Assembly (NCBI GenBank): GCA_002688335.1
Contig: NZCQ01000035.1
Span: 1-39,680 of the forward strand
Source of the DNA: Candidatus Pacearchaeota archaeon
GTDB taxonomy: Archaea > Nanobdellota > Nanobdellia > Pacearchaeales > GW2011-AR1
DNA length: 39,680 bases
Direction of reading: 5' to 3'
In this document: positions 4,808-24,363 of the stretch, one piece after another
Position numbering within the stretch: the first letter of the stretch is position 1
How the letters are laid out: each line of letters starts with the position of its first letter
The notes under the pieces: generated by a model
The model's input: the letters and a program-made list of their open reading frames with translations, nothing else
Told to the model about the DNA's origin: nothing
Databases searched by the model: none
Program-made: the position numbers and the translations under genes

Positions 4808-4849
4808 TGCCCTAGACAGGATTTGAACCTGCGACACCCTGCTTAAGAG
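4808..4849 (-). tRNA. 3' half of a disrupted/split tRNA-Lys(CUU)
   Basis: The complement reads CTCTTAA GCAGG GTGTC GCAGG TTCAAAT CCTGT CTAGGGC A. These are the anticodon loop, anticodon 3' stem, variable loop, T arm with TTCAAAT loop, acceptor 3' strand and discriminator. No 5' portion is adjacent. It pairs with the fragment at 24324-24363. Confidence 0.75.
4843..4849. repeat. Left copy of the 7-bp direct repeat TTAAGAG (attL core or target-site duplication)
   Basis: Identical heptamer at 24324-24330. On the tRNA strand it is the complete anticodon loop CTCTTAA. Identity ends exactly at 7 bp. Confidence 0.8.
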
Positions 4850-4854
4850 TCAAG

Positions 4855-4870
4855 TACACATATGTGTACC
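4855..4870. repeat. Perfect 16-bp palindrome GTACACATATGTGTAC at the left element end
   Basis: Read directly. It lies 5 nt inside the 7-bp core and shares the GTACAC half-site with GGTACAC at 24303-24309. Confidence 0.8.
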
Positions 4871-4880
4871 TTTTACTAAA
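4864..4880. repeat. Left arm of the terminal inverted repeat (GTGTACCTTTTACTAAA)
   Basis: 15 of 17 positions match the complement of 24293-24309 (GTGTACCTATTAGTAAA). Both arms begin 14 nt from the 7-bp core. Confidence 0.65.
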
Positions 4881-4882
4881 TC

Positions 4883-4890
4883 TTTATAAA
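4883..4890. promoter_or_regulatory. Palindromic TATA box TTTATAAA
   Basis: It ends 21 nt upstream of the integrase ATG at 4912, consistent with a leaderless archaeal mRNA. Because it is palindromic, it could also drive transcription toward the tRNA 3' half. Confidence 0.45.
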
Positions 4891-4911
4891 CCTCCTATTT
4901 TTACTCATTTT

Positions 4912-6051
4912 ATGGTAAGTCCTATACGAATAGTTAATGTTGAAAAAGTTCTTAAAGATATGGAGAAGTGGAAAATTCCAGAATCAGAGAAGAAGGCATT
5001 AAAAGAATTCGCTAAGGAGTTTAGGTCTGGAAGGATTACAGGACGTATAGGAAAAGATATTGAAGGAAGCATACAATCATCCATCTACCTTTTAAAATTG
5101 CCCTTAGAATTCATTAATAAGCCAATAAATAGTAAACTAACTGAAAACGATATTAAATCTTTTTTCGATGCCTTAATAAGCGATAAACTAAAAAAGAGAG
5201 TTAGAAAAAGAGTTAACAAAAAACTAAAGTGGGTTGATAATGGTAATTACCAGCAAACTGGAAAGAAGAAGTTTATTAGAACTTTGTCTCTCTATCTTAA
5301 ATATAGATTAGGAAAATATCCAGAGAAATTAGCTAAGTTTGACAATATTTTGAAGGTCATTATAACTACAGTTGACAAAGAACCTAATTCCCTAACTGAA
5401 GAAGAATTTGATAAATTATATGATGCTAGTTCCGAACTATGGCAAAGATATTTTCATATGGTTAATGTCTGGGGAGGATTTAGAGCCGGTGAATTCCATT
5501 CATTAGTAGATTCGGATATTAATCTTCCAGACCCCAATAAAGGAGAAAACTATGTTAAGATATGGGTAAGATTTGCTAACAGCAAAACTAAAGGAAGAAT
5601 GGTTACTTTATTCAACACTAAATGCAATAAGGTTGTTAGAGAATATTTGGAAAAAAGAAAAAAGGAGGGGTTAAAGCCAGATGAACCAGTTTTTGAAAAG
5701 AGTTACAATGCAACCAAGATTTGGATAAGGAGATTTGGAAGAAGGGTTATGAATAAACACGTTCATCATCATCTCTATAGATCAACATGTGCAACTTGGT
5801 TAGTAGACAAACACATTATAACAGACAGAACAAACTTATGTCTTTTCTTTGGTTGGAAATTTAGCTCCCCAATGCCTGATACTTATCTCAATAGAAGTAA
5901 GATTAGCCTAAGGCCAATAGAAGAAGCTGTTAAGGGGAAATCAATGGAGGAAATAGATAAAAGAATAGAAAAGCTGGAAGAATTGATGAATTTATTCTCG
6001 GAAAAAAGAATAGAGACGTTTGAAACCGCAAAGGAAATACTAGCAAAATGA
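4912..6051 (+). CDS. Tyrosine recombinase / integrase
   Basis: Catalytic-domain landmarks are GGFRAGEFHSL (Arg), HHHLYRSTCATWL (H-x-x-R) and a C-terminal W...PDTYLN (Tyr). The track starts at a GTG at 4864. I prefer the ATG at 4912 (MVSPIRIV) because of the TATA spacing. Confidence 0.8.
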   Translation: MVSPIRIVNVEKVLKDMEKWKIPESEKKALKEFAKEFRSGRITGRIGKDIEGSIQSSIYLLKLPLEFINKPINSKLTENDIKSFFDALISDKLKKRVRKRVNKKLKWVDNGNYQQTGKKKFIRTLSLYLKYRLGKYPEKLAKFDNILKVIITTVDKEPNSLTEEEFDKLYDASSELWQRYFHMVNVWGGFRAGEFHSLVDSDINLPDPNKGENYVKIWVRFANSKTKGRMVTLFNTKCNKVVREYLEKRKKEGLKPDEPVFEKSYNATKIWIRRFGRRVMNKHVHHHLYRSTCATWLVDKHIITDRTNLCLFFGWKFSSPMPDTYLNRSKISLRPIEEAVKGKSMEEIDKRIEKLEELMNLFSEKRIETFETAKEILAK

Positions 6052-6425
6052 CTTCAGAAAAAACAATAAGGATAAATGAGAAGGGATTGAAAGATATTTT
6101 TGATGATGCCATAAAAGACCATGTTATTCTCACAAAGAAATCTTTTGATATGAACAATAAATCGATAGATGAAATAAAAAATAGTATAAAAGAGCAAAAA
6201 GAAGTAATAGATACTATAGATAATAAGATTAAAGAAATAGAAAAAGATGCTGAACATAAAAACCTTAAAAAAATTATTTTTGAAGTCCTTAGCCAGATTT
6301 TTATAATAGTTTCAGCAATTTCAATTGGAGCTAATCTAACTTCTGGAGGAAGTAATGGGTTTCCAATGTGGCTGAATGTATCGCTAGTAATTATCGGAGT
6401 TGTGTTAAGGCGTATCTCAAATTAA
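6048..6425 (+). CDS. Hypothetical coiled-coil protein with C-terminal membrane segments
   Basis: 125 aa. The N-terminal part is K/E/I-rich, followed by FEVLSQIFIIVSAISIGA and WLNVSLVIIGVVL. Its start overlaps the integrase stop. Confidence 0.45.
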   Translation: MTSEKTIRINEKGLKDIFDDAIKDHVILTKKSFDMNNKSIDEIKNSIKEQKEVIDTIDNKIKEIEKDAEHKNLKKIIFEVLSQIFIIVSAISIGANLTSGGSNGFPMWLNVSLVIIGVVLRRISN

Positions 6426-6428
6426 ATA

Positions 6429-8987
6429 CTATCTCCTAGTAATTGATTCCTTTTTTCTTAAGAACCTTAATCCAATCCATCCAAAAACAACTAATCCAAT
6501 AAATAGCAGACCATAAGCAATTGTTTGCTTACTCTCTGGACCTCCAATAGCAGCTCCAGTAATATTTGGTCTAAATCTATTTATTAAATTTCTAAAAAAT
6601 TCTAATAATGGATTCCCTTGGTTTTCTTCACTTTCATTTATGATAATATCTTCTATCTCATTATCCACTACTTGTTCATCGATACTCTCATCATCAATAA
6701 CCTGGTTATCATTACCTGTACTAGCAGAACTTGTTGTAGTACTTCCCCCAGAACTTCTGCTACTACTAGAACTTCCCCCTCCACCTCCTCCGCCACCACT
6801 ACTAGGAGGAGCTGGACAAGAACCACAATCTACACCACATGAAGAACACGATTCTCCTTCGCTACATATAGAATCTCCACAAAATTCTTTTTGTTCTTTA
6901 ACAGCAGAATGCTTTAATCCAGTTATTTTATACTGCGTATTGTTATTTATTAACTCACATCCATAATCACTAGTTGTTCCAGGACAAGTTATCCAATATT
7001 CATTTTCTCCAGTACAATCTAATGTAAACTCATTAACTGATTCTATTTCTTGATCTTTAATACATAATCCAGTAACATCAGATATTTTATCAAGATAAAT
7101 AGTCTTAGTTTCATTTTGAGAATCTAAGTCTAATCCTCCTATAATTAGATAAGAATAACTACTCTCTTTAGAGTTTTGTTGTATAGAAAAATTCTCTATA
7201 TCTAAGAGCTCTCTAGTAACATCAAAATCAAATTCAATTAAAATCTTTTCATCACTTTCTACTTTATGTGATGTGAAATTCTCTGAGCTTAAATTAATAG
7301 TCGTTTCATTGTTTGATAAATGACTTAAATCACCAATAAATCCATCACAATTATTATCTGCCCCATCTCCCCTAATTTCATCGACTGGATCACCAGGAGC
7401 ACAGGTGTCTTCCTTTTCTCCAATAATGCATAAATAACTACCTTCCCTAGAACACTCACCTATTCCGCAATTAGTTGTCTCATTAAACCAAGTTTCATTA
7501 AAACCATCATCTTCTAAATCATCAATGCAATTATCATCTATAAGATTACAAGATTCAAAAGCTCCTGGATAAGTTAAGTCTCTTGAATCATCGCAGTCTG
7601 AACCTCCAACAATATCTATATCAAAATTATCTGCATCACTATCCAAATTTAAGCTCAACAAACTAACTGTTAAAGAGTCAACTTCAATATCTATAAAATA
7701 AAATCCATTAATAGCTATCTTATAATTATCGAAAGGAATTAAGGTTGTGAAGTCTATACTTTGTTCTGGGACAATATTTGATTTATCAACATAAAACCAT
7801 CTCTCAGTATTGATATTCTTCTCTAAAGATAAATTCTCAAAATCATTATTAATTGATATATCATCAAGTTGAATCTCAGAATAATCAACATCTATGATAA
7901 TAGCACCTTCTTTAGTTTGAGTTTGAGATAGACTCTCATAAAAAAATTCATTATTTCCAATCTTATCTTCAACATTTTCTCTGCTTAATTCATCTTTAAA
8001 AAACAAATTTGCAATTTGTCCTGAGGTAAAATCATCCTTAATGCTACTTGTTACAGCATGAAAATTATTTAGTAAAACCAAAGGAACATTTTCATCTAAT
8101 AGATGAGAATAAACAGTAGACACTACGCCATCGTTTGTTTCATCATGATTTGATAAACAATAACCATAAGCAGGACTTCCTCCACTTGTTTCATCAAACA
8201 ACTTATGGCCGGCAATGGTTAAGTAACTAACATCTTTATTTAACTCATTAGAATGGAACAATTCCCAAATATAATCACTGCCTATCTCAAAATCTTTGGT
8301 TGCCTCAGAATTTCCATTAAGCGATGGTACACTAAACAAATTATAGGGTTTAGCGGTACCATCAATTAGTTCCTGACAGTATGGATGATCTTCGTTAATA
8401 TTAATATTGGTTATACCGTCTACTAAATTGGCAAAATACGATCCATAAAGAGGGCTAGAAATTGTAACTATTTTGTTTATATCATCATTATATGCAAATA
8501 CATTTCCATTAGTATCAATCCCTAAATTGTGTATATAACCAATAACAGCTAATCCTCCCTGGCTGTGCGCAATAACATTAACATTATCAAATCCATTATC
8601 CCTGTATCCTTCCCCCAATATTTTACCTATAGATTCACCAACTACCCCTGCATTCTTTCTACTGCTCAGATTTGCAGGATAATAATCTAACCTCCAAACA
8701 TCATAACCTTCATTCCTTAGATAGTCTTCAATTTTCCATTCATCATCTTTTTCAGTGTTCCCATTAGCAATATTACTCCATCCATGAACTAATAAGATAG
8801 GTTGTCTTGATACATTGATAGTGTTGTTTTCAAATGTAATCGGTGTGCATGCAATACAACCTCCTCCGGTTCCCGTCCAACGTCCATGTGTTAAATCATA
8901 AGCAGGATAATCAACACCAACTTCATATGCATTAATAAAAGATATGTAGATTATCAATGTGGCAACAAGTATCGTTTTTAGTTTCAT
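6429..8987 (-). CDS. Large secreted, C-terminally anchored surface protein with an N-terminal lipase/esterase (alpha/beta hydrolase) domain and Cys-rich modules
   Basis: Signal peptide MKLKTILVATLIIYISFINA and nucleophile elbow VIAHSQGG (AxSxG, as in Bacillus LipA-type lipases). Repeated D/N/C-rich motifs follow (CDDSRDLTYPGAFESCNLIDDNC, DGADNNCDG). Then comes a G/S/T linker and a terminal TM helix plus a basic tail. Confidence 0.7.
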   Translation of the reverse strand: MKLKTILVATLIIYISFINAYEVGVDYPAYDLTHGRWTGTGGGCIACTPITFENNTINVSRQPILLVHGWSNIANGNTEKDDEWKIEDYLRNEGYDVWRLDYYPANLSSRKNAGVVGESIGKILGEGYRDNGFDNVNVIAHSQGGLAVIGYIHNLGIDTNGNVFAYNDDINKIVTISSPLYGSYFANLVDGITNININEDHPYCQELIDGTAKPYNLFSVPSLNGNSEATKDFEIGSDYIWELFHSNELNKDVSYLTIAGHKLFDETSGGSPAYGYCLSNHDETNDGVVSTVYSHLLDENVPLVLLNNFHAVTSSIKDDFTSGQIANLFFKDELSRENVEDKIGNNEFFYESLSQTQTKEGAIIIDVDYSEIQLDDISINNDFENLSLEKNINTERWFYVDKSNIVPEQSIDFTTLIPFDNYKIAINGFYFIDIEVDSLTVSLLSLNLDSDADNFDIDIVGGSDCDDSRDLTYPGAFESCNLIDDNCIDDLEDDGFNETWFNETTNCGIGECSREGSYLCIIGEKEDTCAPGDPVDEIRGDGADNNCDGFIGDLSHLSNNETTINLSSENFTSHKVESDEKILIEFDFDVTRELLDIENFSIQQNSKESSYSYLIIGGLDLDSQNETKTIYLDKISDVTGLCIKDQEIESVNEFTLDCTGENEYWITCPGTTSDYGCELINNNTQYKITGLKHSAVKEQKEFCGDSICSEGESCSSCGVDCGSCPAPPSSGGGGGGGGSSSSSRSSGGSTTTSSASTGNDNQVIDDESIDEQVVDNEIEDIIINESEENQGNPLLEFFRNLINRFRPNITGAAIGGPESKQTIAYGLLFIGLVVFGWIGLRFLRKKESITRR

Positions 8988-9054
8988 TTTAGTTTAGTCT
9001 TAACACTCTTATAGCGATGTAGCATTTATTTATAAACATTAATGTTTCCCTTTT

Positions 9055-9312
9055 ATGATATTTGAATTTGCAGAAATTAGGTGTATCTTAGAAGTTTTGA
9101 AATTGTTGAATAAGAATGAATCAAAATATTCTACGATGTTTAGGGAAACAAAAGTTAGCCACACTACTCTGCAACCAGTTTTAAAAGAATTGAATGAAAA
9201 GGATTTCATAAACAAACACGATGTAGGTCACATGAAAGTAGATTATGAAATAACTGATAGAGGAAATAAGCTCTTAAAACTCCTTACCGAATTAAAACAG
9301 CTAGTGAACTAA
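9055..9312 (+). CDS. Small winged-helix DNA-binding protein
   Basis: 85 aa. YSTMFRETKVSHTTLQPVLKELNEKDFINKH has an HTH-like pattern. Confidence 0.45.
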   Translation: MIFEFAEIRCILEVLKLLNKNESKYSTMFRETKVSHTTLQPVLKELNEKDFINKHDVGHMKVDYEITDRGNKLLKLLTELKQLVN

Positions 9313-9324
9313 AGAGCTTTTTAG

Positions 9325-9798
9325 TTATTTTGATAAGGGTCTAAATATATATAGGTAACACAATATAGCAAAGAAAACTGTTACAGCTATGTAGCTCCAA
9401 AATAACTCAATTTTTCCCATTATCTCCAATTCATTGATTAAGGTAAACATAGAGGTTAGAAAAATAACAGATGTTAAGTAGATTATTACGGTATTAAAAA
9501 TAGCACTTAATTTTTCTTTTTCATTATGTAATGCTACATCAAATCCTTTTTGAGTCAATTCTATGCTCCACTCACCATACCTTTTATCCTTATTCGTAGG
9601 TTCGATAATCTTTATCATCTCTTGTTTCTCCAAGAAATGTAATGGAGAAAAAACATCAAACTGAGTAAGACCTATTTCTTCTGCTATTTTTCTCTCAAAT
9701 TCATCTATGTCTTTTATGAACCCATATACCATGTTCGGGTTGTTATAAAGATATTTCAATAATCTTTTCCAAACATACTTATGTTTCTTTTCTTTCAT
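9325..9798 (-). CDS. Hypothetical protein, wHTH-like N-domain plus two C-terminal TM helices
   Basis: IAEEIGLTQFDVFSPLHFLEKQEMIKII is followed by VIIYLTSVIFLTSMFTLI and IAVTVFFAILCYLYIF. Confidence 0.45.
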   Translation of the reverse strand: MKEKKHKYVWKRLLKYLYNNPNMVYGFIKDIDEFERKIAEEIGLTQFDVFSPLHFLEKQEMIKIIEPTNKDKRYGEWSIELTQKGFDVALHNEKEKLSAIFNTVIIYLTSVIFLTSMFTLINELEIMGKIELFWSYIAVTVFFAILCYLYIFRPLSK

Positions 9799-9829
9799 TA
9801 AAATTAGTAGATTTTGTAGTTAAAAAATA

Positions 9830-10471
9830 TTAGTAAAAAGGGGTTACGGTTTCCTCTCCCCCAATATCTTTTGATTCATATTTTATTTTGCAGATTCTTT
9901 CCTCAGGGATAGATTCATAAATAAAGGAAACCATATATTCTGTAGTTCTATCAATTTCAGGAATACTAATAACAAACTCATCTTGTTTAAGCTCAGATAT
10001 ACTAACTCCATTTTCAGGACAGGCCATCATAAAAAAACCATCGAGAAAATCCTCCACAGACTCCCTATCTTGATTATGGCAATCAATGTTTAAATTTAGG
10101 TCATAAGTTTTTTTACCCTCATTTCTAATATAAATCCTAAGAAAATCATATCTATCTTCTTGTTTATCTAGTTTTAATCTCCACAATAGACTTGATGAAC
10201 AGGCATCTAGCTGATAGAATCCACTCAAAAATTCATAACTCATATCTTCTTCAGAATGTATTGAAAACATTATTTGAGGTTTATCTGGGATTAAAAGTGA
10301 AATATCCTTCTTTATGTCATTTATATCCTTAGATAAATTTTGATATTGATCATTAGTGTCTTTATCCATTTGATAGTCATGATATAATCCCCACCCCCCA
10401 ATAATTGTTCCTACTCCCGCTACTAGTAGCGTTAACAATGATATCACTATAATCCATTTATTTTCCATCAA
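9830..10471 (-). CDS. Hypothetical membrane-anchored protein
   Basis: 213 aa with an N-terminal TM helix (WIIVISLLTLLVAGVGTIIGGWGL). No family recognised. Confidence 0.45.
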   Translation of the reverse strand: MMENKWIIVISLLTLLVAGVGTIIGGWGLYHDYQMDKDTNDQYQNLSKDINDIKKDISLLIPDKPQIMFSIHSEEDMSYEFLSGFYQLDACSSSLLWRLKLDKQEDRYDFLRIYIRNEGKKTYDLNLNIDCHNQDRESVEDFLDGFFMMACPENGVSISELKQDEFVISIPEIDRTTEYMVSFIYESIPEERICKIKYESKDIGGEETVTPFY

Positions 10472-10549
10472 TATTATCTGTTTCGTGGAATTTTATATCT
10501 TTCTATACTCCTAAAATAATCTTATATACTTCAAATCTTTCTTTTTAAC

Positions 10550-11464
10550 ATGAAACAAATAATTGAAAAAGAAATTGAAAGAATCTTTAGCAAGAATAGT
10601 ATAGCTAAGGTAAAATCTATAAAAAAATTTGACATTGGATTTAATAATGACATTTATTCAATTAATGATAAATTCATTATAAAAATATGTAAAAATAGAT
10701 CAAAAGAGAATGATTTTAAAAAAGAAATTATTTACTATAAACTATTTAGAAACGAAATTCCAGTTCCTAAGATATTATTTGTGGATATATCTAAAAAAAT
10801 AATAAATAGATGTTATTTTGTTTACAAAAAGATAGAGGGAGAAAACCTCTATGCCAAATGGCACTTACTTAAAGGTTCTCAAAGAAAACAAATAGTAAAA
10901 CAAATTTGTGGGATATTGAAGATAATCAATAATTCCAATAAGAAAGGCCAAATAGATTGGCATAAGAAAAGATATTCTAAGATTAGAAAACTTCTTACTA
11001 AAATCACAAATAAAAACATCTTATCAAGTAAACTTATCCAAAAAACAAAAGATTTTGTAGAAAAAAATCATCATATATTAAAAGAGCAAAAACTAGGGTT
11101 AGTATATTGGGATTTGCATTTTGATAACATTCTCATTAAAAATTCAAAGGTGGTGGGATTCTTAGATTTTGAGGGTATTGATATTAGATCAATTGATAAC
11201 GTCTTAGATGCCATAAGAAGAATGCAAAATTATCCTAAAGTATATGCTTCAAAAGAATCTGAAAAATTTGTTAAGAGAAAAGACTACTCAAGTCTATTGA
11301 AATGGTTCGAGGAATTTTATCCAGAACTATTTGATTTTGACAAAATTAATAATAGATTAGATTGGTACTCAATAGAATATGATTTATCATTATTGCTCAG
11401 ATATCCTGACAATTTGGAGCTGAAGAAAAGATTGGCAAAAACTGTAAAATGGAAGATAATCTAA
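10550..11464 (+). CDS. APH/choline-kinase-fold phosphotransferase
   Basis: N-lobe IGFNNDIYSINDKFIIKICK (Lys), catalytic loop YWDLHFDNILI (D-x4-N, as in HGDLxxxN) and metal-binding GFLDFEG. Confidence 0.7.
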   Translation: MKQIIEKEIERIFSKNSIAKVKSIKKFDIGFNNDIYSINDKFIIKICKNRSKENDFKKEIIYYKLFRNEIPVPKILFVDISKKIINRCYFVYKKIEGENLYAKWHLLKGSQRKQIVKQICGILKIINNSNKKGQIDWHKKRYSKIRKLLTKITNKNILSSKLIQKTKDFVEKNHHILKEQKLGLVYWDLHFDNILIKNSKVVGFLDFEGIDIRSIDNVLDAIRRMQNYPKVYASKESEKFVKRKDYSSLLKWFEEFYPELFDFDKINNRLDWYSIEYDLSLLLRYPDNLELKKRLAKTVKWKII

Positions 11465-11937
11465 AGAAGTTGAAGTTAAAAGTTAGTATTGCAAAATTTT
11501 TAACATTTCATAAAAATAGAGTATCTCTTTTGAAAGAATTGTTGCAAAAGAAGGTTCATGGAAGACTTATATTCCAAGTTTCATTTCTTGGTTTCGAGAG
11601 TTTGGGAAAGGTATTATATCCAAAAGAAGAAAATTCCAAAAAAAGATTTCTTGATGCCTTGAAGGTTATTAATGTGGATGATGCTATTATTTTACATAAA
11701 TATTGGAGAAATCCTTTAACTCATGAAGGATTTGTATCGGGTATCTGGACATCATTAGAAACCTGGGGTGATGACGATCTCTCATTTGCATCATTTATTG
11801 ACGATTCTGATACTAATAAGATAAGAGGCGGTGTAGAATATCCCCCAGGTTCGATCCTTGCAATGTATGAGGGATTAATTAGATGTTCAGAAAATTACTT
11901 CAAGGAAAGGGAAATCAAGGAAGTTGTCATAGAATAA
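11449..11937 (+). CDS. Hypothetical protein with HEPN-like RNxxxH motif
   Basis: 162 aa. KYWRNPLTHEG matches the Rx4-6H HEPN signature, with the frequent Asn after Arg. It overlaps the kinase gene by 16 nt. The motif-only call is weak. Confidence 0.4.
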   Translation: MEDNLKKLKLKVSIAKFLTFHKNRVSLLKELLQKKVHGRLIFQVSFLGFESLGKVLYPKEENSKKRFLDALKVINVDDAIILHKYWRNPLTHEGFVSGIWTSLETWGDDDLSFASFIDDSDTNKIRGGVEYPPGSILAMYEGLIRCSENYFKEREIKEVVIE

Positions 11938-12028
11938 AACCTTTGGTAAAGGCTAACTATTGACAATTCAATTTGTAGGAAATTATTTAAAAAGAAATTA
12001 ATTTAAAATTTTAAGGTAATAATACAAA

Positions 12029-12703
12029 ATGGTAGGAAGATTATTTCTAAGCGGTGGAGGAGATGAAAAACAAACTTATAAAATTGATGAAGAATTTTTA
12101 AGGGGGGTTGAGAAAATTCTTTACATTCCAATTGCATGGAAGGATGGAGATTACGAAAGTTGTAAACGATGGTTTAGTAATGCAATGGGAATGCATAAAA
12201 AAGTTCATATTACGACACTAACAGAACTTTCCAATGCGCCAAGTCTTGAAGATTACGATGCAGTGTATGTTGGAGGGGGAAATACTTTTAAACTTCTTGA
12301 TGAAATGAAAAGATTTAATTTTGATGATAAATTACATAAATACTTTCTAAATGGAGGAACAGTTTATGGAGGTTCTGCTGGAGCAATAATCTGGGGTAAT
12401 GATATTAATATTGCATTGTATTGCGAAGATGCTGATGAAAATAAAGTTAATTTAAAGGATACAAAGGGTATAAACGTAGTCAGTAATTGTGATGTCCAAT
12501 GTCATTTCTTTGATAATCAAGAAAAAGAGCATTTAGATTATGTTGATGAAAATAATAGGAATGTTGTAGCACTACCAGAAGAATCTGCTTTATTAATATC
12601 AAAGGACGGGTCTAAGGTAATTGGTGATAAACCGGTAACTTTATTTACAAGGGGAAAGATTAAAAAATTTGAAGTTGGAGAAAATTTCAATATGAGTTAT
12701 TAG
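12029..12703 (+). CDS. Peptidase S51 family (dipeptidase E-like)
   Basis: VYVGGGNTFKLLDEM and the nucleophile motif YGGSAGAII. Confidence 0.7.
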   Translation: MVGRLFLSGGGDEKQTYKIDEEFLRGVEKILYIPIAWKDGDYESCKRWFSNAMGMHKKVHITTLTELSNAPSLEDYDAVYVGGGNTFKLLDEMKRFNFDDKLHKYFLNGGTVYGGSAGAIIWGNDINIALYCEDADENKVNLKDTKGINVVSNCDVQCHFFDNQEKEHLDYVDENNRNVVALPEESALLISKDGSKVIGDKPVTLFTRGKIKKFEVGENFNMSY

Positions 12704-12733
12704 ATTTTTATACATCTATAACCATCAATATAT

Positions 12734-13480
12734 ATGAAAAAGAAAATAGCAGTTATTGGTAAGGGAAAGTTTGGATCTCAAATCGCCACAATATTAAAAG
12801 ATAAATATGGATCAGAATATTTATTTCCAACAAGAAAAGATAAGAATAAGACTGATAAAGATAAAACAGATTTCCCAAATATATCCATTAATAATATTAA
12901 GGCTGTAGAAAATTCAGATATAATTCTCTTACTTACGCATCCAAAAGATGCCAGTGAAGTCTTACAAGAGATAGATTCAGTTATTAATAATAGATTGATA
13001 GTTAATTTTACATCAAAGGAGTTAGATTCACAACATCCCTTATTAAATGTTGCTTGTTCGCCAGTAATTGAAGGAAGAATTACTACGATTTTGTATAATC
13101 CAAATGAAAAAGTCAAGAAAAAAGACATAGAAATGTTTGCAGAAATATTTAAGCCATTAGCAAAAAATTTCATGGAGTGTGATAATTCAGTTGCTGAACT
13201 AGGTCTTATGTCAAGAATCCGTGCTCATATTTTCAATTATTATAGAGACTTATTAAAAGAAGGTCATAATGGAAGTAATCTTAAATCTCACTTTGACCAT
13301 GCTATTGAAAGCCTACTAAATTCTGAAGGTATTGAGAACCAAACACAAAAAGCTCAGACCAAGGGAGGATTTACTGAGGAGATAAATAATCTATATAATG
13401 AAGACAATTTATTTGAAAAATTGGTTAAAAAAGAAAAAGATGTCATAAATAGTAAAATAAAATCTATTCAGGAAAATTAA
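12734..13480 (+). CDS. NAD(P)-binding oxidoreductase, pyrroline-5-carboxylate-reductase-like
   Basis: N-terminal Rossmann stretch KKIAVIGKGKFGSQIA. The C-terminal TKGGFTEE resembles the ProC SPGGTT motif. Function uncertain. Confidence 0.5.
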   Translation: MKKKIAVIGKGKFGSQIATILKDKYGSEYLFPTRKDKNKTDKDKTDFPNISINNIKAVENSDIILLLTHPKDASEVLQEIDSVINNRLIVNFTSKELDSQHPLLNVACSPVIEGRITTILYNPNEKVKKKDIEMFAEIFKPLAKNFMECDNSVAELGLMSRIRAHIFNYYRDLLKEGHNGSNLKSHFDHAIESLLNSEGIENQTQKAQTKGGFTEEINNLYNEDNLFEKLVKKEKDVINSKIKSIQEN

Positions 13481-14616
13481 CTATCATACCTATTAGACTT
13501 ATCATATCCAATAACTAAAAGGTTTTTTCCTTCAACATTTTTAGCTATATCTAATGCGACATTGATTCCTGCTTTTGTGGTTCTACCAAATCCATCTGCA
13601 GATTCAATAGGAGAATCCCAGTGTACTAATTTCTTAGTATCATCTCTACCAGTTAGGTCACTATACTGTGCATCCATCCTCTCACTGCTAACAAGAGCAA
13701 CATCATCAACCAATTCTAATGAATTTGTTATATGGGGAAAGTCAATTCCTTGAAAGCTAGTTCCAGGTAATTCATGTCTAGATAAACTTCCGGGTTTAAT
13801 TCCAAATCTTCTCTCATACTCTCCAGGATGTTTTAAATCATATAGAACAGCAGCTTGAACAGTCTCAAAAGGAACAATTCTCGTTCTTGTATCATCTATT
13901 GATTGAACTTCCTTTCCTAAATCAAATCCTCGTAAATTATAGGGAGCTCCTTCTTCCATAAAAGTTCCAAGAATGCCTTGAGCCATATTATTCCAATACT
14001 GAAATACTCTACCAGGCCCTAAAACACTAGATCCGTTTCCAATTGCTGGAATAAAGTAATGAATATTATCTAATTCCTCAAATGCCTCACTTGCTATGCC
14101 TTCTAAAGCTCTTAATGTGAGTTCATTATTGGTCCCCCTTTCTTCACCCATTGAGTGGTTCATAAAATGATACTCTCCCTTATTTTTAACCAAAAATCTT
14201 CTTAGAAATCTTGGAAATCCATTTACATAATCTTCCGCAGGAGTAAAAATTAAATGGTCTTCATCAGGTAATTGTTCTAATATAGCTCTTTCCCTTGCTT
14301 TCTCTCCACCTGCAGGTAGAACCATATAACAATCATATCCTAGTTCCTTACCAATTCCTGCAAAAGAAACTCCTGCAGAACCAGAACTTGTTTCTAACAC
14401 CTTATCTCCTGGTTTAATCCTACCTCTTTGCTCATCATGCTTAAATATCTCAAGATATACCCTATCGTAATGACTTTGAAAAGGATTGTCAAATTCCCTT
14501 TTTATCCATATAGAATTACCATTAGGAACTTGTCCTTCGTATCTAACTAATGGAGTTCCACCTATTTTTTCTTCCCATTCTCTATAAAGTGTTCCTCTAT
14601 CTTCTTGCATTTTCAA
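13477..14616 (-). CDS. Fold-type II PLP-enzyme homologue (cysteine synthase / Trp-synthase-beta superfamily) lacking the expected Schiff-base lysine
   Basis: IGGTPLVRY, ETSSGSAGVSFAG (compare TSGNTG) and IPAIGNGSSVLG (compare GxGTGGT). The NPxxSxKxR motif reads NPFQSHYDR here. Confidence 0.65.
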   Translation of the reverse strand: MKMQEDRGTLYREWEEKIGGTPLVRYEGQVPNGNSIWIKREFDNPFQSHYDRVYLEIFKHDEQRGRIKPGDKVLETSSGSAGVSFAGIGKELGYDCYMVLPAGGEKARERAILEQLPDEDHLIFTPAEDYVNGFPRFLRRFLVKNKGEYHFMNHSMGEERGTNNELTLRALEGIASEAFEELDNIHYFIPAIGNGSSVLGPGRVFQYWNNMAQGILGTFMEEGAPYNLRGFDLGKEVQSIDDTRTRIVPFETVQAAVLYDLKHPGEYERRFGIKPGSLSRHELPGTSFQGIDFPHITNSLELVDDVALVSSERMDAQYSDLTGRDDTKKLVHWDSPIESADGFGRTTKAGINVALDIAKNVEGKNLLVIGYDKSNRYDS

Positions 14617-14820: not shown

Positions 14821-15600
14821 ATGGACTTTGAACCAATTAATTTAGATGGATTTGATGGTAGAGATGAAGCATTGGCAAAAATTAAAAGATATATCCATCA
14901 TATAACGCCTATAATGTTCTATAGAACAAATGATTTGATTCATTCAAAAAGGGTCCTCTGGCACCTTGAACAAGCCATACCGGACATTTTACAAGTATAC
15001 GGGACGGACTTTGATGTCAAATATTCTAGGACATTAGCACTAGTTCATGATGATGTTGAAATACTTACTGGAGATGTTCAATTGCATGATAAAGAACATA
15101 TGGGATCTGGGGAGCTTGAAGCCTTGGCCGCAGAAGAAAATAATGCTATACCAAAATTAGTGTCGATGTATAATGGAATAGCAAATGGATACGATTATGC
15201 TGAGTTACTAGCTACTGCTAAAGAAAAGGATAGATTAGAATCACAATTTGTTTCATTTTTTGATAAATTTGACGGAGGAGGTGAAGCATGGCATGAAGTA
15301 TGGGCAGGAAATCATTGTTTTCTACTTCCTGCTGGAGGAAATCACGGAAAAGAAGGAGGGTATGTAAGGAGATTAAATGAATTTCCAACTAAATATCCTG
15401 CTATGTCAAGATTCTTTGATCAATTTCCAGAATATTTACCACAGCCGTTTGATTTTAAATCAGTAGCAGATAGAAGCAAACCTCATACAGAAATTTCATT
15501 GCAAGAAGATAGTGGGTATTCTCCATATGAAAGATGGAGAATACCAATTATGAAACATGAAGGTGCTGATATCCTTACAACACAGATAGAATTTAGCTAG
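14821..15600 (+). CDS. HD-domain phosphohydrolase (YfbR-type 5'-nucleotidase-like)
   Basis: H...HD...D pattern: IHSKRVLWHLE ... LALVHDDVEILTGDV. Confidence 0.6.
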   Translation: MDFEPINLDGFDGRDEALAKIKRYIHHITPIMFYRTNDLIHSKRVLWHLEQAIPDILQVYGTDFDVKYSRTLALVHDDVEILTGDVQLHDKEHMGSGELEALAAEENNAIPKLVSMYNGIANGYDYAELLATAKEKDRLESQFVSFFDKFDGGGEAWHEVWAGNHCFLLPAGGNHGKEGGYVRRLNEFPTKYPAMSRFFDQFPEYLPQPFDFKSVADRSKPHTEISLQEDSGYSPYERWRIPIMKHEGADILTTQIEFS

Positions 15601-15647
15601 AAATTCTAAATAGAAAACAATATTAATGCTAATTTTGATTATATTCT

Positions 15648-16613
15648 ATGAAAGAAGTAATAATAATTCATGGAACAGAAGGCAGTCCAAAATCAAACTG
15701 GTTTCCATGGTTAAAAAAAGAATTGGAGAATTTTGATTGTGATATATTTATTCCAAAATTTCCAACTCCAGAAAATCAATCTTTAAATAAGTGGCTAGAA
15801 GAATTTGACAAGATTAAAACTAATATAAAAGAGGACACTATTTTAATTGGGCATAGTTTGGGCCCTGCATTTATTCTCTCGGTTCTTGAACAAATTGATA
15901 AACCTATAAAAGCGGCATTTCTTGTTGCAGGATTTACAGGCAACCTCGGGAATGAACATTTTGATTCTTTGAATGACACATTTGTTAATAAAAAATTTGA
16001 TTGGAATAAAATAAAAGGAAATTGCAAAAAATTTTATGTGATTAACTCAACTAATGATCCATATGTACCAATAGAAAAAGGGGAAGAATTAGCCAATAAT
16101 TTAGATGTTGATTTAGTTCAACTAGATAATGCAGGACATATTAATGCCGAATCTGGTTACAATACGTTTGAGTTTCTTCTTGACAAAATTAAAAAAGAAT
16201 TGTATAGAGAAACTGAAAGTTCAGGAGGAGTTGTTCTCAATAAAGAGGGCAAGGTCCTAGTTGTAAGTCAACATGGAACTTCTTGGTCACTACCAAAAGG
16301 TCATATTGAAAAAGGAGAAAATCAAATAGAGTCAGCAAAAAGAGAAACCTATGAGGAGTCTGGAATAACTGAATTAGAACATATATCTTATCTTGGAAAC
16401 TATCAAAGATATAGATTAAACAAAAAAGGCGGAATTGATGAAACAGAAAGAAAAACAATTCATATTCATTCATTTAAGACCAATCAAGATATACTCAAAC
16501 CAGTTGATCCAGAAAACCCAGAAGCAAAATGGGTAGATAAAGAAGAAGTATCAAATCTACTAACGCATGAAGCAGATAGGGAATTTTTTAAAAAAATTAT
16601 CAATACTATCTAA
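15648..16613 (+). CDS. Fusion protein: YdeN/RBBP9-type serine hydrolase domain plus Nudix hydrolase domain
   Basis: N-terminal half: VIIIHGTEGSPKSNWFPWL and GHSLGP. C-terminal half: Nudix box LPKGHIEKGENQIESAKRETYEESGI (GX5EX7REXXEEXG). Confidence 0.7.
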   Translation: MKEVIIIHGTEGSPKSNWFPWLKKELENFDCDIFIPKFPTPENQSLNKWLEEFDKIKTNIKEDTILIGHSLGPAFILSVLEQIDKPIKAAFLVAGFTGNLGNEHFDSLNDTFVNKKFDWNKIKGNCKKFYVINSTNDPYVPIEKGEELANNLDVDLVQLDNAGHINAESGYNTFEFLLDKIKKELYRETESSGGVVLNKEGKVLVVSQHGTSWSLPKGHIEKGENQIESAKRETYEESGITELEHISYLGNYQRYRLNKKGGIDETERKTIHIHSFKTNQDILKPVDPENPEAKWVDKEEVSNLLTHEADREFFKKIINTI

Positions 16614-16647
16614 AAGTAATCTTGAAAACACTAAAACAACAATAAAA

Positions 16648-17553
16648 ATGAAACCAGAAAAGCTAAAAATAGGAGATGCTATTGGAATTGTATCACCTTC
16701 AAATCCAGTTGAAGGAGAAAGCATAAACTTACTAGAGAAAGGAATTAATTACCTAGAAAATTTGGGTTTTAAAATTAAAAGAGGAGAATTTCTTTCATCA
16801 ACAAATCCTGAAGATAAAGCTAAGGATATCAATAACTTCTTCTCAGACAATGAGGTAAAGGCTATAATCTGTACTCAGGGAGGGGATAGTGCTGAAAAAA
16901 CTATTCCATTTATTGACTGGGAGATTATAAAAAAGAATCCTAAGATATTTATGGGGATAAGTGATATAACAGTTCTTCTAAATTCAATTAATCATAAAAC
17001 CGATTTAATCACGTTTCATGGAAATGATATATGCTATGGGTTTGGTAGAAATCCAAATAATTATGACCTAGAGGAGTTTAAGAAAATTTTAGTTAATGGA
17101 AAATCAGGAGAGATAAATTCTAATGGAGAAAGAAAGACGATAAGGTCTGGTGTAACTACTGGTAAACTTTCTGGAGGAAATATAAGGTGTCTATTAAAAT
17201 TAGCTGATACAGAATATTGGCCAGATTTTGATAATTCTATACTAATATTGGAAGCTTATAAGATTGATGAAGAAAAATGTTTGGAATATTTTCAGATTTT
17301 AAAAGATAAAAAAGTATTTGATAAAATTAATGGTGTAATCATTGGATTCATATATGAAATGCAAAAAGAAAATCCAAATGAAAAACAAATGGAAGATTTA
17401 CTATTGGAATTTACCAAGGAATATGATTTTCCAATTCTTAAGATTAATGATTTTGGGCACAACTGTCCAAATACAACACTTCCAATTGGAGGCAAAGTAG
17501 AAATGGATGCTGATGAAAAGACAATAACAATAATAGAAGGATACATAAAATAA
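16648..17553 (+). CDS. LD-carboxypeptidase / MccF-like peptidase S66
   Basis: IGIVSPS, nucleophile motif FMGISDITVLL, and DFGHNCPNTTLPIGG near the C-terminus. The track start at 16567 overlaps the previous gene, so I prefer the ATG at 16648 (MKPEKLKIGD). Confidence 0.75.
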   Translation: MKPEKLKIGDAIGIVSPSNPVEGESINLLEKGINYLENLGFKIKRGEFLSSTNPEDKAKDINNFFSDNEVKAIICTQGGDSAEKTIPFIDWEIIKKNPKIFMGISDITVLLNSINHKTDLITFHGNDICYGFGRNPNNYDLEEFKKILVNGKSGEINSNGERKTIRSGVTTGKLSGGNIRCLLKLADTEYWPDFDNSILILEAYKIDEEKCLEYFQILKDKKVFDKINGVIIGFIYEMQKENPNEKQMEDLLLEFTKEYDFPILKINDFGHNCPNTTLPIGGKVEMDADEKTITIIEGYIK

Positions 17554-18075
17554 TCAGTCTTCCCACTCCAACTCCACTAAATCCTGTGGACTAACATGAC
17601 AATAAATTTCTGTCGTTTGCAATTTTGCATGACCTAAAAATCTCTGTACCTGCCTCACATCCCATCTCTTTTTATTCAACAACCATGTGGCTCCAGAATG
17701 CCTTAATGTATGAAAATGTAAATCCTTGTTTAAAACTTCTTTTGCTTTATTCTTAAATGCAATCTCCAGTGCCCTTTCACCACAATTGATAGGCAATTTA
17801 TTCAAAGCATGTAGCACTCCAGACTGATTAATCTGCAAGGGTTTAATAATCGGAATATGTCTATCTTTCTTTCCCTTTGCTTGCTTAATCATTATCAAAT
17901 GTTGTTTCTTATCAACATTCTCTAATTTCAAATTAACAACTTCGCTTACCCTCATAGCCTGATAAAATCCAAGAAGAAAGGCCAGCTTATGATTATTTCT
18001 TTTTGTTTTAGAAATAATTTTTACTAACTCGTCCTCAGTTATTGTTTCTGGAATTCTTCTCCCTTTCATCTCCAA
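17554..18075 (-). CDS. Minimal tyrosine recombinase (catalytic domain only, 173 aa)
   Basis: FYQAMRVSEV (Arg), HFHTLRHSGATWLL (H-x-x-R), FLGHAK (His) and TTEIYCHV (Tyr). Confidence 0.8.
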   Translation of the reverse strand: MEMKGRRIPETITEDELVKIISKTKRNNHKLAFLLGFYQAMRVSEVVNLKLENVDKKQHLIMIKQAKGKKDRHIPIIKPLQINQSGVLHALNKLPINCGERALEIAFKNKAKEVLNKDLHFHTLRHSGATWLLNKKRWDVRQVQRFLGHAKLQTTEIYCHVSPQDLVELEWED

Positions 18076-18485
18076 AATCCCTCCCTTTTCTGTCTTCTTC
18101 CAATTATTTGTCTGGGATAGATTCTTTTTTGAGGGCTTAAGATTTTGGAAGTCACAACTTTCTCCTTAGGCAACTCTTTATCAAAATCTATGTCGCAATT
18201 ATCTGTGCCTGTATGAAATGTTCTGGAACTAGAACCAAAAATATCAGAAAAATGTTGCAAGTCCTCAGAATTCTTTCTATGTTGAGGATTGTTCAAATTT
18301 AAGTTTGTGTCAAATTCACATGCAACCGCCTTCGGAGATTTATCCTTTCCAAAACAAGCTAAGTCCAGTTTAGAGAGAACAGAAAAATCTTTTGAAGGTA
18401 TAATAAATTCAGATTTGCATCTATATCCCTTTTCTTCCAATTTTCTTTTATTCAACTTCTGACAATCTGAATGTTTCTTATCCAT
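18066..18485 (-). CDS. Hypothetical protein
   Basis: 139-aa ORF overlapping the recombinase start by 10 nt. No family recognised. Confidence 0.4.
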   Translation of the reverse strand: MDKKHSDCQKLNKRKLEEKGYRCKSEFIIPSKDFSVLSKLDLACFGKDKSPKAVACEFDTNLNLNNPQHRKNSEDLQHFSDIFGSSSRTFHTGTDNCDIDFDKELPKEKVVTSKILSPQKRIYPRQIIGRRQKREGFWR

Positions 18486-22830: not shown

Positions 22831-23154
22831 TTATAGTTTGCCATTTTGTAGATTATTAGAAAACTTTTCCCTCCATTCTTGCCAATATTTTGTATGACCA
22901 AATATTACTAATGAATCGCAACCAAGTACTTCTGCCATTTTTATTTTGACATAAGAACTTGGACGCCAATCCTCGTTCACTATCTTACTCATCGTTCCTT
23001 TAGAAATGCCAATCTTATCTGCTAATTGATTTTGGGATATGCCTACACGCAACAACAATACCCTAATCCTGTCTTTCACGGATATACTAAAACAATCTGC
23101 AACAGCATCAGCAATAAAAAAATCTTTTTTCTTAGTTTGTATTGTAGATTCCAT
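22831..23154 (-). CDS. XRE-family HTH transcriptional regulator
   Basis: IRVLLLRVGISQNQLADKIGISKGTMSKIVNE is a typical HTH_3. Confidence 0.7.
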   Translation of the reverse strand: MESTIQTKKKDFFIADAVADCFSISVKDRIRVLLLRVGISQNQLADKIGISKGTMSKIVNEDWRPSSYVKIKMAEVLGCDSLVIFGHTKYWQEWREKFSNNLQNGKL

Positions 23155-23430: not shown

Positions 23431-23432
23431 AC

Positions 23433-23550
23433 TTAGGAAATTTGTTTATATTTCCTAATATAACTAAATAGTTATATTTAAATCTTTCGGATTATTAATC
23501 GTAATTTCCTAATAGTTACAACCATAGGTTTATATATCTAAATTTCCTAA
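23433..23550. promoter_or_regulatory. Divergent control region with four copies of the 9-mer ATTTCCTAA/TTAGGAAAT plus a TATA box
   Basis: TTAGGAAAT at 23433-23441 is inverted against ATTTCCTAA at 23450-23458. Direct copies lie at 23504-23512 and 23542-23550. TTTATATA at 23529-23536 lies 21 nt before the ATG at 23558. Confidence 0.55.
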
Positions 23551-23557
23551 AACCAAT

Positions 23558-24193
23558 ATGAATACAAAAAAACCTTTGGTAGCAAAAAAGAATGTAGTTA
23601 ACATGCTTGCTTTAATTTTAATGAGAATAGATACTAATAAAAAAATAGCAGATACACTAGGAAGAAATGAAGCAACAATATCTGAACATCTCTCACCATT
23701 AAAAAAAGAAGGTCTTGTATTCACAAGAGAAAATAAAAAGAACAATGAAAAAAATTACGAAGTCAATTGTAGCAGGATTGCAGAATTATTCTTTACCAAA
23801 TACTTAAAAGACAAAAAGATTCTGAAATATAAAAATAATGATTTTGTTACATTAACATTCGCCGGAGTTGTTTCAATCAAAAAAGGATTATTAACAAAAG
23901 ATCCAAAAAGATTTGATAGAATTGATTTAACAGATATATTTAGAGAAACCCATGAAAACTTTTATTATAGGGGACTAGAATTAATCAAAGGAAAAGAATC
24001 TATTGCGCTTCAAGGGTATAGAACAAATAATGCAAAAACATTAAAATATTTTAAGGAATTTATAAAGTATATTTACTATGACATGAGAAACAGGATTGAA
24101 GAAAAAAAGAAAAAAGAGGAAGAAGATAGATTAAGAAAGGGTAAAAAATCTGTTGAGGAGATATCATTAAAAAATGCCCCCGACCGGATTTGA
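23558..24193 (+). CDS. Winged-helix (ArsR/MarR-like) regulator with extended C-terminal domain
   Basis: IADTLGRNEATISEHLSPLKKEGLVFTRE. The last 19 nt, including the stop codon, lie inside the 3' end of the intact tRNA-Lys gene on the opposite strand. Confidence 0.5.
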   Translation: MNTKKPLVAKKNVVNMLALILMRIDTNKKIADTLGRNEATISEHLSPLKKEGLVFTRENKKNNEKNYEVNCSRIAELFFTKYLKDKKILKYKNNDFVTLTFAGVVSIKKGLLTKDPKRFDRIDLTDIFRETHENFYYRGLELIKGKESIALQGYRTNNAKTLKYFKEFIKYIYYDMRNRIEEKKKKEEEDRLRKGKKSVEEISLKNAPDRI

Positions 24194-24249
24194 ACCGGCG
24201 ACACCGTGGTTAAGAGCCACGTGCTCTAACCAGACTGAGCTACGGGAGC
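24175..24249 (-). tRNA. tRNA-Lys(CUU), intact
   Basis: The complement reads GCTCCCG TA GCTC AGTCTGGTTA GAGC A CGTGG CTCTTAA CCACG GTGTC GCCGG TTCAAAT CCGGT CGGGGGC A. This is a full cloverleaf with anticodon CTT. No CCA is encoded. Confidence 0.9.
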
Positions 24250-24292
24250 ATGTATGTTTATAGCTCGCAATTAGAGTATTTAAGTGCTATTT

Positions 24293-24309
24293 TTTACTAA
24301 TAGGTACAC
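24293..24309. repeat. Right arm of the terminal inverted repeat
   Basis: The complement reads GTGTACCTATTAGTAAA, a 15/17 match to 4864-4880. It is 14 nt from the 7-bp core. Confidence 0.65.
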
Positions 24310-24323
24310 CGTAGGACTCTAGA

Positions 24324-24330
24324 TTAAGAG
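24324..24330. repeat. Right copy of the 7-bp direct repeat TTAAGAG (attR core or target-site duplication)
   Basis: Identical to 4843-4849. Confidence 0.8.
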
Positions 24331-24363
24331 GCAGGTGCTCTAACCGGACTGAGCTACTAAGGC
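24324..24363 (-). tRNA. 5' half of the disrupted/split tRNA-Lys(CUU)
   Basis: The complement reads GCCTTAG TA GCTC AGTCCGGTTA GAGC A CCTGC CTCTTAA. These are the acceptor 5' strand, D arm, anticodon 5' stem and loop with CTT. The next bases (TCTAG...) cannot close the anticodon stem. Confidence 0.75.

Follow-up and report, generated by a model that had tools for sequence, protein, structure and literature searches.

A DPANN mobile element inserted in the anticodon loop of a tRNA-Lys(CUU) gene and carrying a tRNA-Lys(CUU) of its own

How does a chromosome come to hold one tRNA-Lys(CUU) gene as two mutually fitting halves, with an intact tRNA-Lys(CUU) gene lying between them? This arrangement is found in a 39,680-nucleotide stretch of archaeal DNA, contig NZCQ01000035.1 of assembly GCA_002688335.1 (hereafter the window), in which a reading of the letters alone (the sequence-only reading) had noticed the two fragments. 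Our analysis leads us, with high confidence, to read positions 4850-24323 as a mobile element that has inserted site-specifically into the genome of a marine archaeon (Woesearchaeota, DPANN superphylum) and that probably replaces the broken host tRNA in cis. The element is 19,474 bp long (19,481 bp with one copy of the core described below) and is bounded by the tRNA halves. The earlier reading had missed two features: a tyrosine integrase abuts the 3' half, and the intact tRNA came with the element. The latter is the key to the system.

RESULTS

One tRNA-Lys(CUU) gene is split in its anticodon loop

What do the two halves contain? Both lie on the minus strand and are given here in tRNA orientation. 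The 5' half (24324..24363), at the attL junction, reads GCCTTAGTAGCTCAGTCCGGTTAGAGCACCTGC CTCTTAA from 24363 to 24324 and holds the 5' strand of the acceptor stem, the D arm, the 5' strand of the anticodon stem, and the anticodon loop (by parts, GCCTTAG TA GCTC AGTCCGGTTA GAGC A CCTGC CTCTTAA). The 3' half (4808..4849), at the attR junction, reads CTCTTAA GCAGG GTGTC GCAGG TTCAAAT CCTGT CTAGGGC A from 4849 to 4808 and holds the anticodon loop, the 3' strand of the anticodon stem, the variable loop, the T arm, the 3' strand of the acceptor stem, and A73. The positions and letters that the sequence-only reading had given for the two halves are exact. The only sequence common to both junctions is the 7-nt anticodon loop CTCTTAA, the core and crossover region, of which one copy lies at 24324..24330 and the other, within the 3' half, at 4843..4849 (both on the minus strand). 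A repeat finder did not recover a longer direct repeat of an attachment (att) site; it returned only the similarity of the halves to the intact tRNA (repeats D2, 84%, and D9, 91%), the 84% being the match between the 3' half and its counterpart in the intact copy.

When the halves are joined and one CTCTTAA is dropped, the resulting 75 nt are called tRNA-Lys(ctt) by ARAGORN, with a standard cloverleaf in which the acceptor stem has 7 bp (one of them G.U), the D and T arms are normal, and the anticodon stem pairs perfectly. Neither half alone was called as a tRNA by ARAGORN or Rfam, and neither belongs to another complete tRNA. The two programs find one tRNA in the entire window, the intact tRNA-Lys(CUU) at 24175..24249 on the minus strand (Rfam, 66.3 bits), which is followed by a run of Ts. 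Its stems (GCTCCCG/CGGGGGC and CGTGG/CCACG) cannot pair with either orphan half, whereas the orphan halves fit each other. The proposal that one tRNA-Lys(CUU) gene is split by ~19.5 kb, each half co-varying with its partner but not with the intact copy, is borne out by these results and by the uninterrupted genes described next. The 5' half also keeps the TATA box that had been proposed for the disrupted gene (TTTTAAAT, 24387..24394, minus strand); it occupies positions -31..-24 relative to G1 and ends 24 nt upstream of that base (24363), and its placement is matched in orthologs.

Relatives hold the gene uninterrupted

Does the joined gene exist where the element is absent? We scanned JGI metagenome contigs with a 29-nt pattern that runs across the joined anticodon arm and found four contigs with an uninterrupted tRNA-Lys(CUU): L023, L024, L025, and L026. 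Each has exactly one tRNA-Lys, and in each it matches the orphan halves rather than the intact copy. The tRNA of L025 (Rfam, 70.3 bits) is identical to the joined halves at 74 of 75 positions; one of its flanks corresponds to window positions 41-3858, including the HhH-GPD gene, and the other to positions 24324-24450 (the promoter region) and 27192-27522 (the TFIIS gene). The remaining three agree with the joined halves at 73/75 positions (L023, with HhH-GPD on one side and a homolog of the 73-aa gene at 24477-24698 on the other), 72/75 (L026, with HhH-GPD on one side and the promoter region on the other), and 69/75 (L024, with a CDC48 flank, on the right side only). Positions 4850-24323 are missing from L025, L023, and L026, and no homolog of any of the 23 open reading frames (ORFs) of the interval was found in L024 or L025. 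These empty sites, three of which match both flanks of the window, show that 4850-24323 was inserted into a pre-existing tRNA-Lys(CUU) gene and that the intact copy arrived with the insert. Exact-protein look-ups with three flanking genes gave no empty site, all matches being the same integrated haplotype.

Upstream of three of the four uninterrupted orthologs (L025, L023, and L024) stands a TTTT(T)AAA block aligned with the TATA box of the 5' half; L026 has only TTTT aligned at that position, and a TTTTAAA slightly further upstream. The orphan halves themselves are nearly undecayed. The 3' half is identical to the orthologs in L025 and L023, and the 5' half shows one D-loop difference from L025, which argues for an insertion that is recent or reversible.

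A tyrosine integrase and a symmetric att site adjoin the split gene

Which enzyme could have carried out the insertion? Beside the 3' half, and divergent from it, lies a gene for a tyrosine integrase of 379 aa counted from its ATG (4912..6051, plus strand), complete and not split, with its start 62 nt from the core. Its match to Pfam PF00589 (38.3 bits against a cutoff of 27.1) places it in the tyrosine recombinase superfamily. Among 24 homologs, R191, K225, R290, and Y325 are invariant and H287 is nearly invariant, making these residues candidates for the catalytic R...K...HxxR...Y set. We considered an integrase of the SSV ("suicidal") type and rejected it, given that the integrase ORF is complete and that, once the circular junction is reconstructed, no frame reads through it.

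The intact tRNA-Lys(CUU) lies at the other end of the element, 74 nt inside the junction and on the same strand as the orphan 5' half. It is the element's own copy and presumably the replacement for the disrupted host gene. A leader (4850..4911, minus strand), which forms the att arm from the start of the integrase to the core, is nearly identical to the leader of a relative, L017, and holds the palindrome GTACACATATGTGTAC (4854-4869) and an inverted-repeat arm (4864-4880). A 74-nt trailer (24250..24323, minus strand), between the core and the element tRNA, is collinear with a contiguous region of L017 and holds the inverted-repeat arm GTGTACCTATTAGTAAA (24293-24309) together with a TATA-like box (CTTAAATA, 24277..24284, minus strand; -35..-28 of the element tRNA). 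The block TTAAATACTCT is kept between the window and the L017 episome at equal distance from the tRNA, and the TATA-like box is a candidate promoter of the element tRNA, which after integration also lies downstream of the host promoter.

We reconstructed the recombination sites in silico. In the minus-strand view, attP reads ...TTTAGTAAAAGGTACAC ATATGTGTACTTGA [CTCTTAA] TCTAGAGTCCTACG GTGTACCTATTAGTAAA..., with the junction sequence ...GTGTACTTGA CTCTTAA TCTAGAGTCC..., and the attB junction reads ...GAGCACCTGC CTCTTAA GCAGGGTG... The two arms of attP form an inverted repeat that matches at 15 of 17 positions, each arm exactly 14 nt from the core; when window positions were paired at random 20,000 times, this score was never reached. 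Relatives also have in-register inverted repeats, at a distance of 12-14 nt (11/14 in L011 and 10/14 in L021); L017 has an inverted repeat of 6/6 immediately flanking the core, and the leaders of relatives carry GGTGTCAC-like repeats. Symmetric arms around a 7-bp overlap fit putative tyrosine-recombinase binding sites. In attB the dyad would probably be supplied by the anticodon stem, to judge from general knowledge of these enzymes and from a review of archaeal tyrosine recombinases (PMC8371274).

Two relatives locate the crossover. Contigs L027 and L028 are 100% identical through the integrase, the leader, and the core, begin to differ at the third base past the core, and bear no relation to each other beyond the 3' end of the tRNA. 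They represent the same element in two host alleles, with crossover at the core and recent mobility.

The integrase, core, and tRNA form a portable cassette

How far does this arrangement extend beyond the window? Among ~5.8 billion proteins, the integrase has 28 homologs at E<1e-5, with 32-68% identity. The species-representative genomes contributed three loci, two from Candidatus Woesearchaeota metagenome-assembled genomes (MAGs) and one from a Sedimentisphaerales MAG. Searches of IMG/VR and of the PLSDB plasmids with the integrase found no relatives. In every context examined, a tRNA-Lys or a piece of one stands directly upstream of the integrase.

One group of relatives shows the integrated state. 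In L012 (Woesearchaeota; neighbors include HhH-GPD, TFIIS, and SerRS), an orphan 3' half, CTCTTAA TGTGG...ACGGGCC A, lies by the integrase, and an orphan 5' half, GGTCCGT...CCACA CTCTTAA, lies 5.8 kb away. The two pair perfectly and co-vary (CCACA/TGTGG and GGTCCGT/ACGGGCC), and an intact tRNA-Lys(CUU) with different stems lies between them. In L014, L027, L028, L029/30, and L031/32, orphan 3' halves of tRNA-Lys(CUU) or tRNA-Lys(UUU) are fused at CTCTTAA or CTTTTAA to the integrase leader, and no tRNA was called at these orphan 3' halves.

A second group shows the unrecombined state. In L017-L020, whose integrase is 63% identical to that of the window, the integrase, a 63-nt leader, CTCTTAA, a 72-nt trailer, and an intact tRNA-Lys(CUU) are contiguous, and this stretch is collinear with the leader, core, trailer, and tRNA of the window joined in silico. 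L017 and L018 overlap and are circularly permuted; the resulting circle of ~16.5 kb, which equals the stated length of the contig, is an episomal form of a relative. The same contiguous layout was found in L009/10, L011, and L021/22, which have bacterial-type contexts.

Core and carried tRNA co-vary, the core of these contiguous cassettes matching the anticodon loop of the tRNA beside it: L009 has CTTTTAA with tRNA-Lys(UUU). The orphan tRNA-Lys(UUU) halves of L014 and L031 are fused at CTTTTAA. No protein besides the integrase is detectably shared among the elements, and thus the integrase, the att site, and the tRNA behave as a portable cassette, with ~300 bp outside the integrase ORF. The integrase, the core, and a tRNA of the same anticodon are strictly linked across at least five otherwise unrelated backbones.

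Several further observations concern these relatives. The L017/L018 episome carries a second, small integrase and a serine resolvase, and L029/L030 carry a Cdc6/Orc1-like initiator and an N6/N4 methyltransferase; the cassette therefore rides plasmid-like backbones, among whose other genes no counterpart of a gene in the window element is detectable. The integrases of L009/L010, L011 (the same as L015, the Sedimentisphaerales MAG), and L021/L022 are 52-55% identical to that of the window, and their neighbors encode sigma-70, an RND pump, PEP-CTERM, and sulfatase proteins. In L011 and L021, the tRNA is closely followed on its 3' side by a second integrase. In L012, at ~13108..13030 on the minus strand and by a 100-N scaffold gap, the 5' half of the element tRNA-Lys(CUU) is fused at CTCTTAA to the trailer; this second junction lies upstream of the intact element tRNA and suggests either a tandem or nested insertion into the element-borne tRNA or a collapsed assembly repeat. 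Finally, 12-13-nt copies of tRNA 3' ends (CCTTACGGGCCA, CCTGCAGAGCCA, and CCCCTCGCGTCCA) recur every ~115-150 nt downstream of orphan 3' halves (L012 at ~7355, L014 at ~2400, and two in L027, at distances of ~130 and 290 nt). Their appearance is that of att remnants left by other insertions of the classical type that targets the 3' end, or of a miniature element.

A model for the insertion and the evidence against it

Taken together, these data suggest the following model. The tyrosine integrase (4912-6051) would have recombined the att site of the element, whose 7-bp core CTCTTAA is identical to the host anticodon loop, with that loop in the host tRNA-Lys(CUU). The att site shares only these 7 bp with the tRNA gene, and so the host gene was not reconstituted; its 5' half, with the promoter, and its 3' half were left 19.5 kb apart as attL and attR. 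The element tRNA-Lys(CUU), with its own TATA-like box, now follows the orphan 5' half closely and shares its strand. It is probably expressed, may be needed, and would most likely supply the lost tRNA-Lys(CUU) function, complementing the host gene. The position of the integrase points to it as the likely catalyst, and the element may be able to excise; precise excision would restore the host gene. Of all this, the data establish the insertion, a crossover at the core, a host gene that stayed unrebuilt, and the arrival of the intact tRNA with the element.

Several observations weigh against this model. The attP junction of the window element had 0 matches in IMG/VR, and every assembly of this population is in the integrated state. 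No capsid, terminase, or other viral or plasmid hallmark was found in the element by Pfam, PHROGs, and NCBIfam, with many of its ORFs remaining unannotated. The large metabolic-looking cargo and the broken second recombinase, both described below, may mark a decaying or composite island, not an active element. The G+C content is ~31% throughout, with no step at the junctions, a comparison that we also judge to be uninformative. Another host tRNA-Lys(CUU) is possible, and the element tRNA may not be essential. The simple model also leaves unexplained why the cassette is unrecombined in long, chromosome-like contigs of bacterial context (L009, L011, and L021).

Could the insertion be as we describe it and the element nevertheless be a fixed, immobile remnant, its tRNA a redundant passenger? 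In that case AAG codons would be read by another tRNA-Lys(CUU) or by tRNA-Lys(UUU), which reads AAG by wobble in many organisms. The exclusively integrated state, the lack of a circular junction in IMG/VR, the cargo, the broken recombinase, and the host-like G+C all speak for this alternative. Against it, the integrase is intact with its candidate catalytic residues conserved, both copies of the core are intact, the orphan halves show essentially no decay, and the strict linkage of integrase, core, and tRNA over at least five unrelated backbones argues that the tRNA is selected within the module. We consider an immobile remnant rather unlikely.

Are the halves instead a split gene of the Nanoarchaeum type, transcribed apart, annealed through their leader and trailer, and trans-spliced by the archaeal splicing endonuclease? 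Split tRNAs were first found in DPANN, the superphylum of the host; the 5' half retains a promoter; the trailer of the 5' half and the leader of the 3' half share a complementary stretch of 15/17; and an RNA cofold restores the acceptor, D, anticodon, and T stems. We scanned for a bulge-helix-bulge motif by scoring the h-B-H-B-h' geometry in eight registers of the duplicated loop, in both the window and L012. No such motif was found in any of the eight registers in either sequence: the central 4-bp helix never reached 4/4, and at the canonical position 37/38 it scored 0/4 in both. RNAcofold places a 10x3 internal loop beside the helix, which is the wrong geometry, and the presence of the full 7-nt loop in both halves is a signature of recombination, not a splice design. 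The complementary stretch is accounted for by the symmetric att arms, which are contiguous in the L017 episome. Close relatives hold the gene uninterrupted, so that the split is not conserved, and an intact isoacceptor lies 74 nt away. The missing motif, the empty sites, the adjacent integrase, and the isoacceptor in cis together make trans-splicing very unlikely.

Is the intact gene at 24175-24249 perhaps a hybrid of host and element, as in a classical island that rebuilds its target tRNA, with the fragments as displaced att repeats? Most archaeal and bacterial integrases that target tRNA genes do reconstitute the gene (PMC8371274), and the 84% similarity of the 3' fragment to the intact copy would suit such a history. 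However, a classical island would leave a single partial repeat instead of a matching pair of 5' and 3' orphans; neither orphan can pair with the stems of the intact copy; the empty-site gene has the sequence of the joined orphans (74/75) and differs from the intact copy; identity at the att site extends over just 7 bp; and the L017 episome carries the whole tRNA. This makes a rebuilt host gene extremely unlikely.

Are the junctions themselves real? Exact-protein look-ups of flanking genes retrieved junction contigs from other samples and assemblers (ERZ5402580, ERZ2773079/TARA, ERZ27286384, ERZ909131, and ERZ840571). The junction of integrase and 3' half occurs in three independent ENA assemblies (L002 and L003, 100% identical; L001, one mismatch in 14,797 nt), and the junction of 5' half, trailer, and element tRNA occurs in four (L004/5, L006, L007, and L008; 99.86-100% identity, collinear with the window). 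The two junctions together recur in at least five independent assemblies. Samples with this population include ERR594346 and SAMEA2620097 (TARA). The metagenomic origin of the sequence and the tRNA-derived repeats at both ends and beside the intact tRNA might suggest a chimeric assembly, in which two strains or loci were wrongly joined where tRNA sequence is repeated. The recurrences and the same architecture in the unrelated contigs L012 and L027-L032 practically rule this out.

DISCUSSION

Has such a strategy been seen before? In tRNA-dependent lysogeny, described experimentally in mycobacteriophages and other actinobacteriophages (Fionnbharth, LeBron, Gaia, and others; Guerrero-Bustamante and Hatfull, mBio 2024, PMC10865867), cores of 8-17 bp leave the tRNA gene unrebuilt, a cognate phage tRNA is required, and tRNA-Lys is often the target; the Lj965 prophage of Lactobacillus johnsonii is cited alongside. 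The window element resembles these phages in its tyrosine integrase, in an attB that lies inside a host tRNA gene (with tRNA-Lys the commonest target there), and in putative binding sites that flank the core (PMC10865867). Three features of that strategy recur here. The integrase abuts attR, and the empty sites point to integration at an attB that overlaps a tRNA gene; the core is short (7 bp), with no tRNA called by ARAGORN or Rfam at attL or attR; and the element carries a tRNA-Lys(CUU) (24175-24249), the anticodon matching the core in relatives too.

The differences are equally clear. Unlike the actinobacteriophages, the system described here has an archaeal (DPANN) host, no phage hallmarks were found in the element, the core is exactly the 7-nt anticodon loop, and integrase, att site, and tRNA form one tight cassette on otherwise unrelated backbones, also in bacterial contigs. 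A tblastn search of INPHARED (50,697 phage records, E<=1e-3) with the window integrase gave only one match, of 26%, to the integrase of an archaeal pleolipovirus, and none to an actinobacteriophage; the integrase is thus without detectable homology to the Fionnbharth/LeBron or Gaia integrase phamilies. The strategy itself has bacterial precedent (PMC10865867), so far shown only for bacterial viruses. What appears to be new is the archaeal domain and the unrelated integrase family.

Among archaeal elements, those of the pNOB8 type likewise keep the integrase intact after integration and target a tRNA gene, and SSV1 Int likewise crosses over at the anticodon loop. The known archaeal cases, in contrast, carry a tRNA segment in attP and rebuild the gene, whereas the window element has the 7-nt loop and a separate, whole tRNA (PMC8371274). 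That 2021 review of archaeal tyrosine recombinases gives reconstitution as the rule and does not mention DPANN. We also rejected assignment to the classical tRNA-reconstituting elements (P4-like and pNOB8-like, with repeats of ~15 bp or more and a hybrid tRNA), as only 7 bp are shared and orphan halves stand at both junctions. In the literature on integrated elements of DPANN we found nothing comparable, and no archaeal paper was found, judging by title, among the 23 that use the term tRNA-dependent lysogeny, a survey whose coverage is incomplete and which an earlier description may have escaped.

On this footing we put forward, with about even confidence, a broader proposal: that this is the first archaeal (DPANN) case of tRNA-dependent integration, carried out by a compact, portable cassette of integrase, 7-bp att core, and tRNA-Lys of the same anticodon, which occurs on unrelated backbones and, at 50-55% integrase identity, in Woesearchaeota as well as bacterial (Planctomycetota-type) contigs; and that its by-product halves are a plausible live precursor of the split tRNA genes of Nanoarchaeota. 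These halves are broken in the anticodon loop, have a promoter on the 5' half, and have complementary flanks derived from att arms. They resemble the split genes of Nanoarchaeum equitans and some Crenarchaeota in their distant halves, the break in the anticodon loop, the promoter of the 5' half, and the partly complementary flanks. They differ from these split genes in having no bulge-helix-bulge, a duplicated loop, a split that is not conserved in relatives, and an isoacceptor in cis. The event matches the mobile-element model of tRNA gene disruption (Sugahara et al. 2012, PMC3293823), which predicts such events as the origin of split genes.

If the proposal is right, tRNA-dependent lysogeny would extend to Archaea with an unrelated integrase, implying convergent evolution and a distribution wider than documented. 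DPANN genomes are very small, usually with a single gene for each tRNA species. Swapping an essential tRNA gene for the copy of an element would tie the survival of the host to the element, unless it excised precisely. Orphan halves are invisible to tRNA finders, and the tRNA that is detected would be that of the element, so that tRNA inventories and host assignments of such MAGs can mislead. The locus is also an observed, datable case in which a mobile element has cut a tRNA gene at its anticodon loop, within the very superphylum that has split tRNA genes, and it makes the mobile-element model for split tRNAs (PMC3293823) concretely testable. For archaea that have no genetic system, the minimal cassette could offer a tool for integration.

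Other genes of the element and its flanks

What else does the element carry? The sequence-only reading had taken everything between the halves to be accessory. This stands in part; with ~11 kb of metabolic-looking genes and a second, apparently frameshifted recombinase, the interval is more than accessory DNA of the classic kind. The metabolic-looking block (6429..17553, on Pfam matches) encodes an 852-aa protein, an APH-like kinase, a peptidase S51, an NADP/F420 oxidoreductase-like protein, a pyridoxal phosphate enzyme, an HD protein, a serine hydrolase-NUDIX fusion (15648-16613, plus strand), and an LD-carboxypeptidase. For the 852-aa protein (6429-8987, minus strand), the only matches were weak ones to an alpha/beta-hydrolase and to the MopE motif. 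Several ORFs of the element could not be annotated, including one of 602 aa; Pfam, PHROGs, and NCBIfam were uninformative for the unannotated element proteins (those of 602 aa, 244 aa, and 852 aa, and others).

The second recombinase (17554..18485, minus strand) is Xer-like and consists of two overlapping ORFs (17554-18075 and 18066-18485) with an apparent frameshift between them; the first matches PF00589 with 90.5 bits, and NCBIfam models of the XerA/XerC/XerD type match below their cutoffs. Its presence raises the possibility that the element is composite or has captured an older island. Two regulators lie toward the tRNA end: a Cro/CI-type helix-turn-helix protein (22831..23154, minus strand; Pfam HTH_3 and PHROG transcriptional-repressor families) and an ArsR/TrmB-like winged-helix protein (23558..24193, plus strand), whose 3' end runs into the element tRNA, encoded on the other strand.

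The flanks had been described as housekeeping throughout. Housekeeping genes are indeed present, namely, two CDC48 paralogs, a TFIIS-type Zn ribbon, the HhH-GPD glycosylase, and SerRS, but the description was too strong, as the flanks also hold HicAB and ParE toxin-antitoxin modules. These genes (HicA/HicB, a second HicB, and ParE) lie at 3872-4280, 25889-26128, and 26651-26905, on both flanks, and the matching spacings are shorter in the empty-site contig L025; the tRNA locus therefore seems to be a general hotspot for accessory genes. The two CDC48/VCP-type double-AAA ATPase paralogs stand in tandem (29107-31383 and 31758-33977, plus strand) with a 126-aa ORF between them, and short patches of the two are 79% identical in nucleotides.

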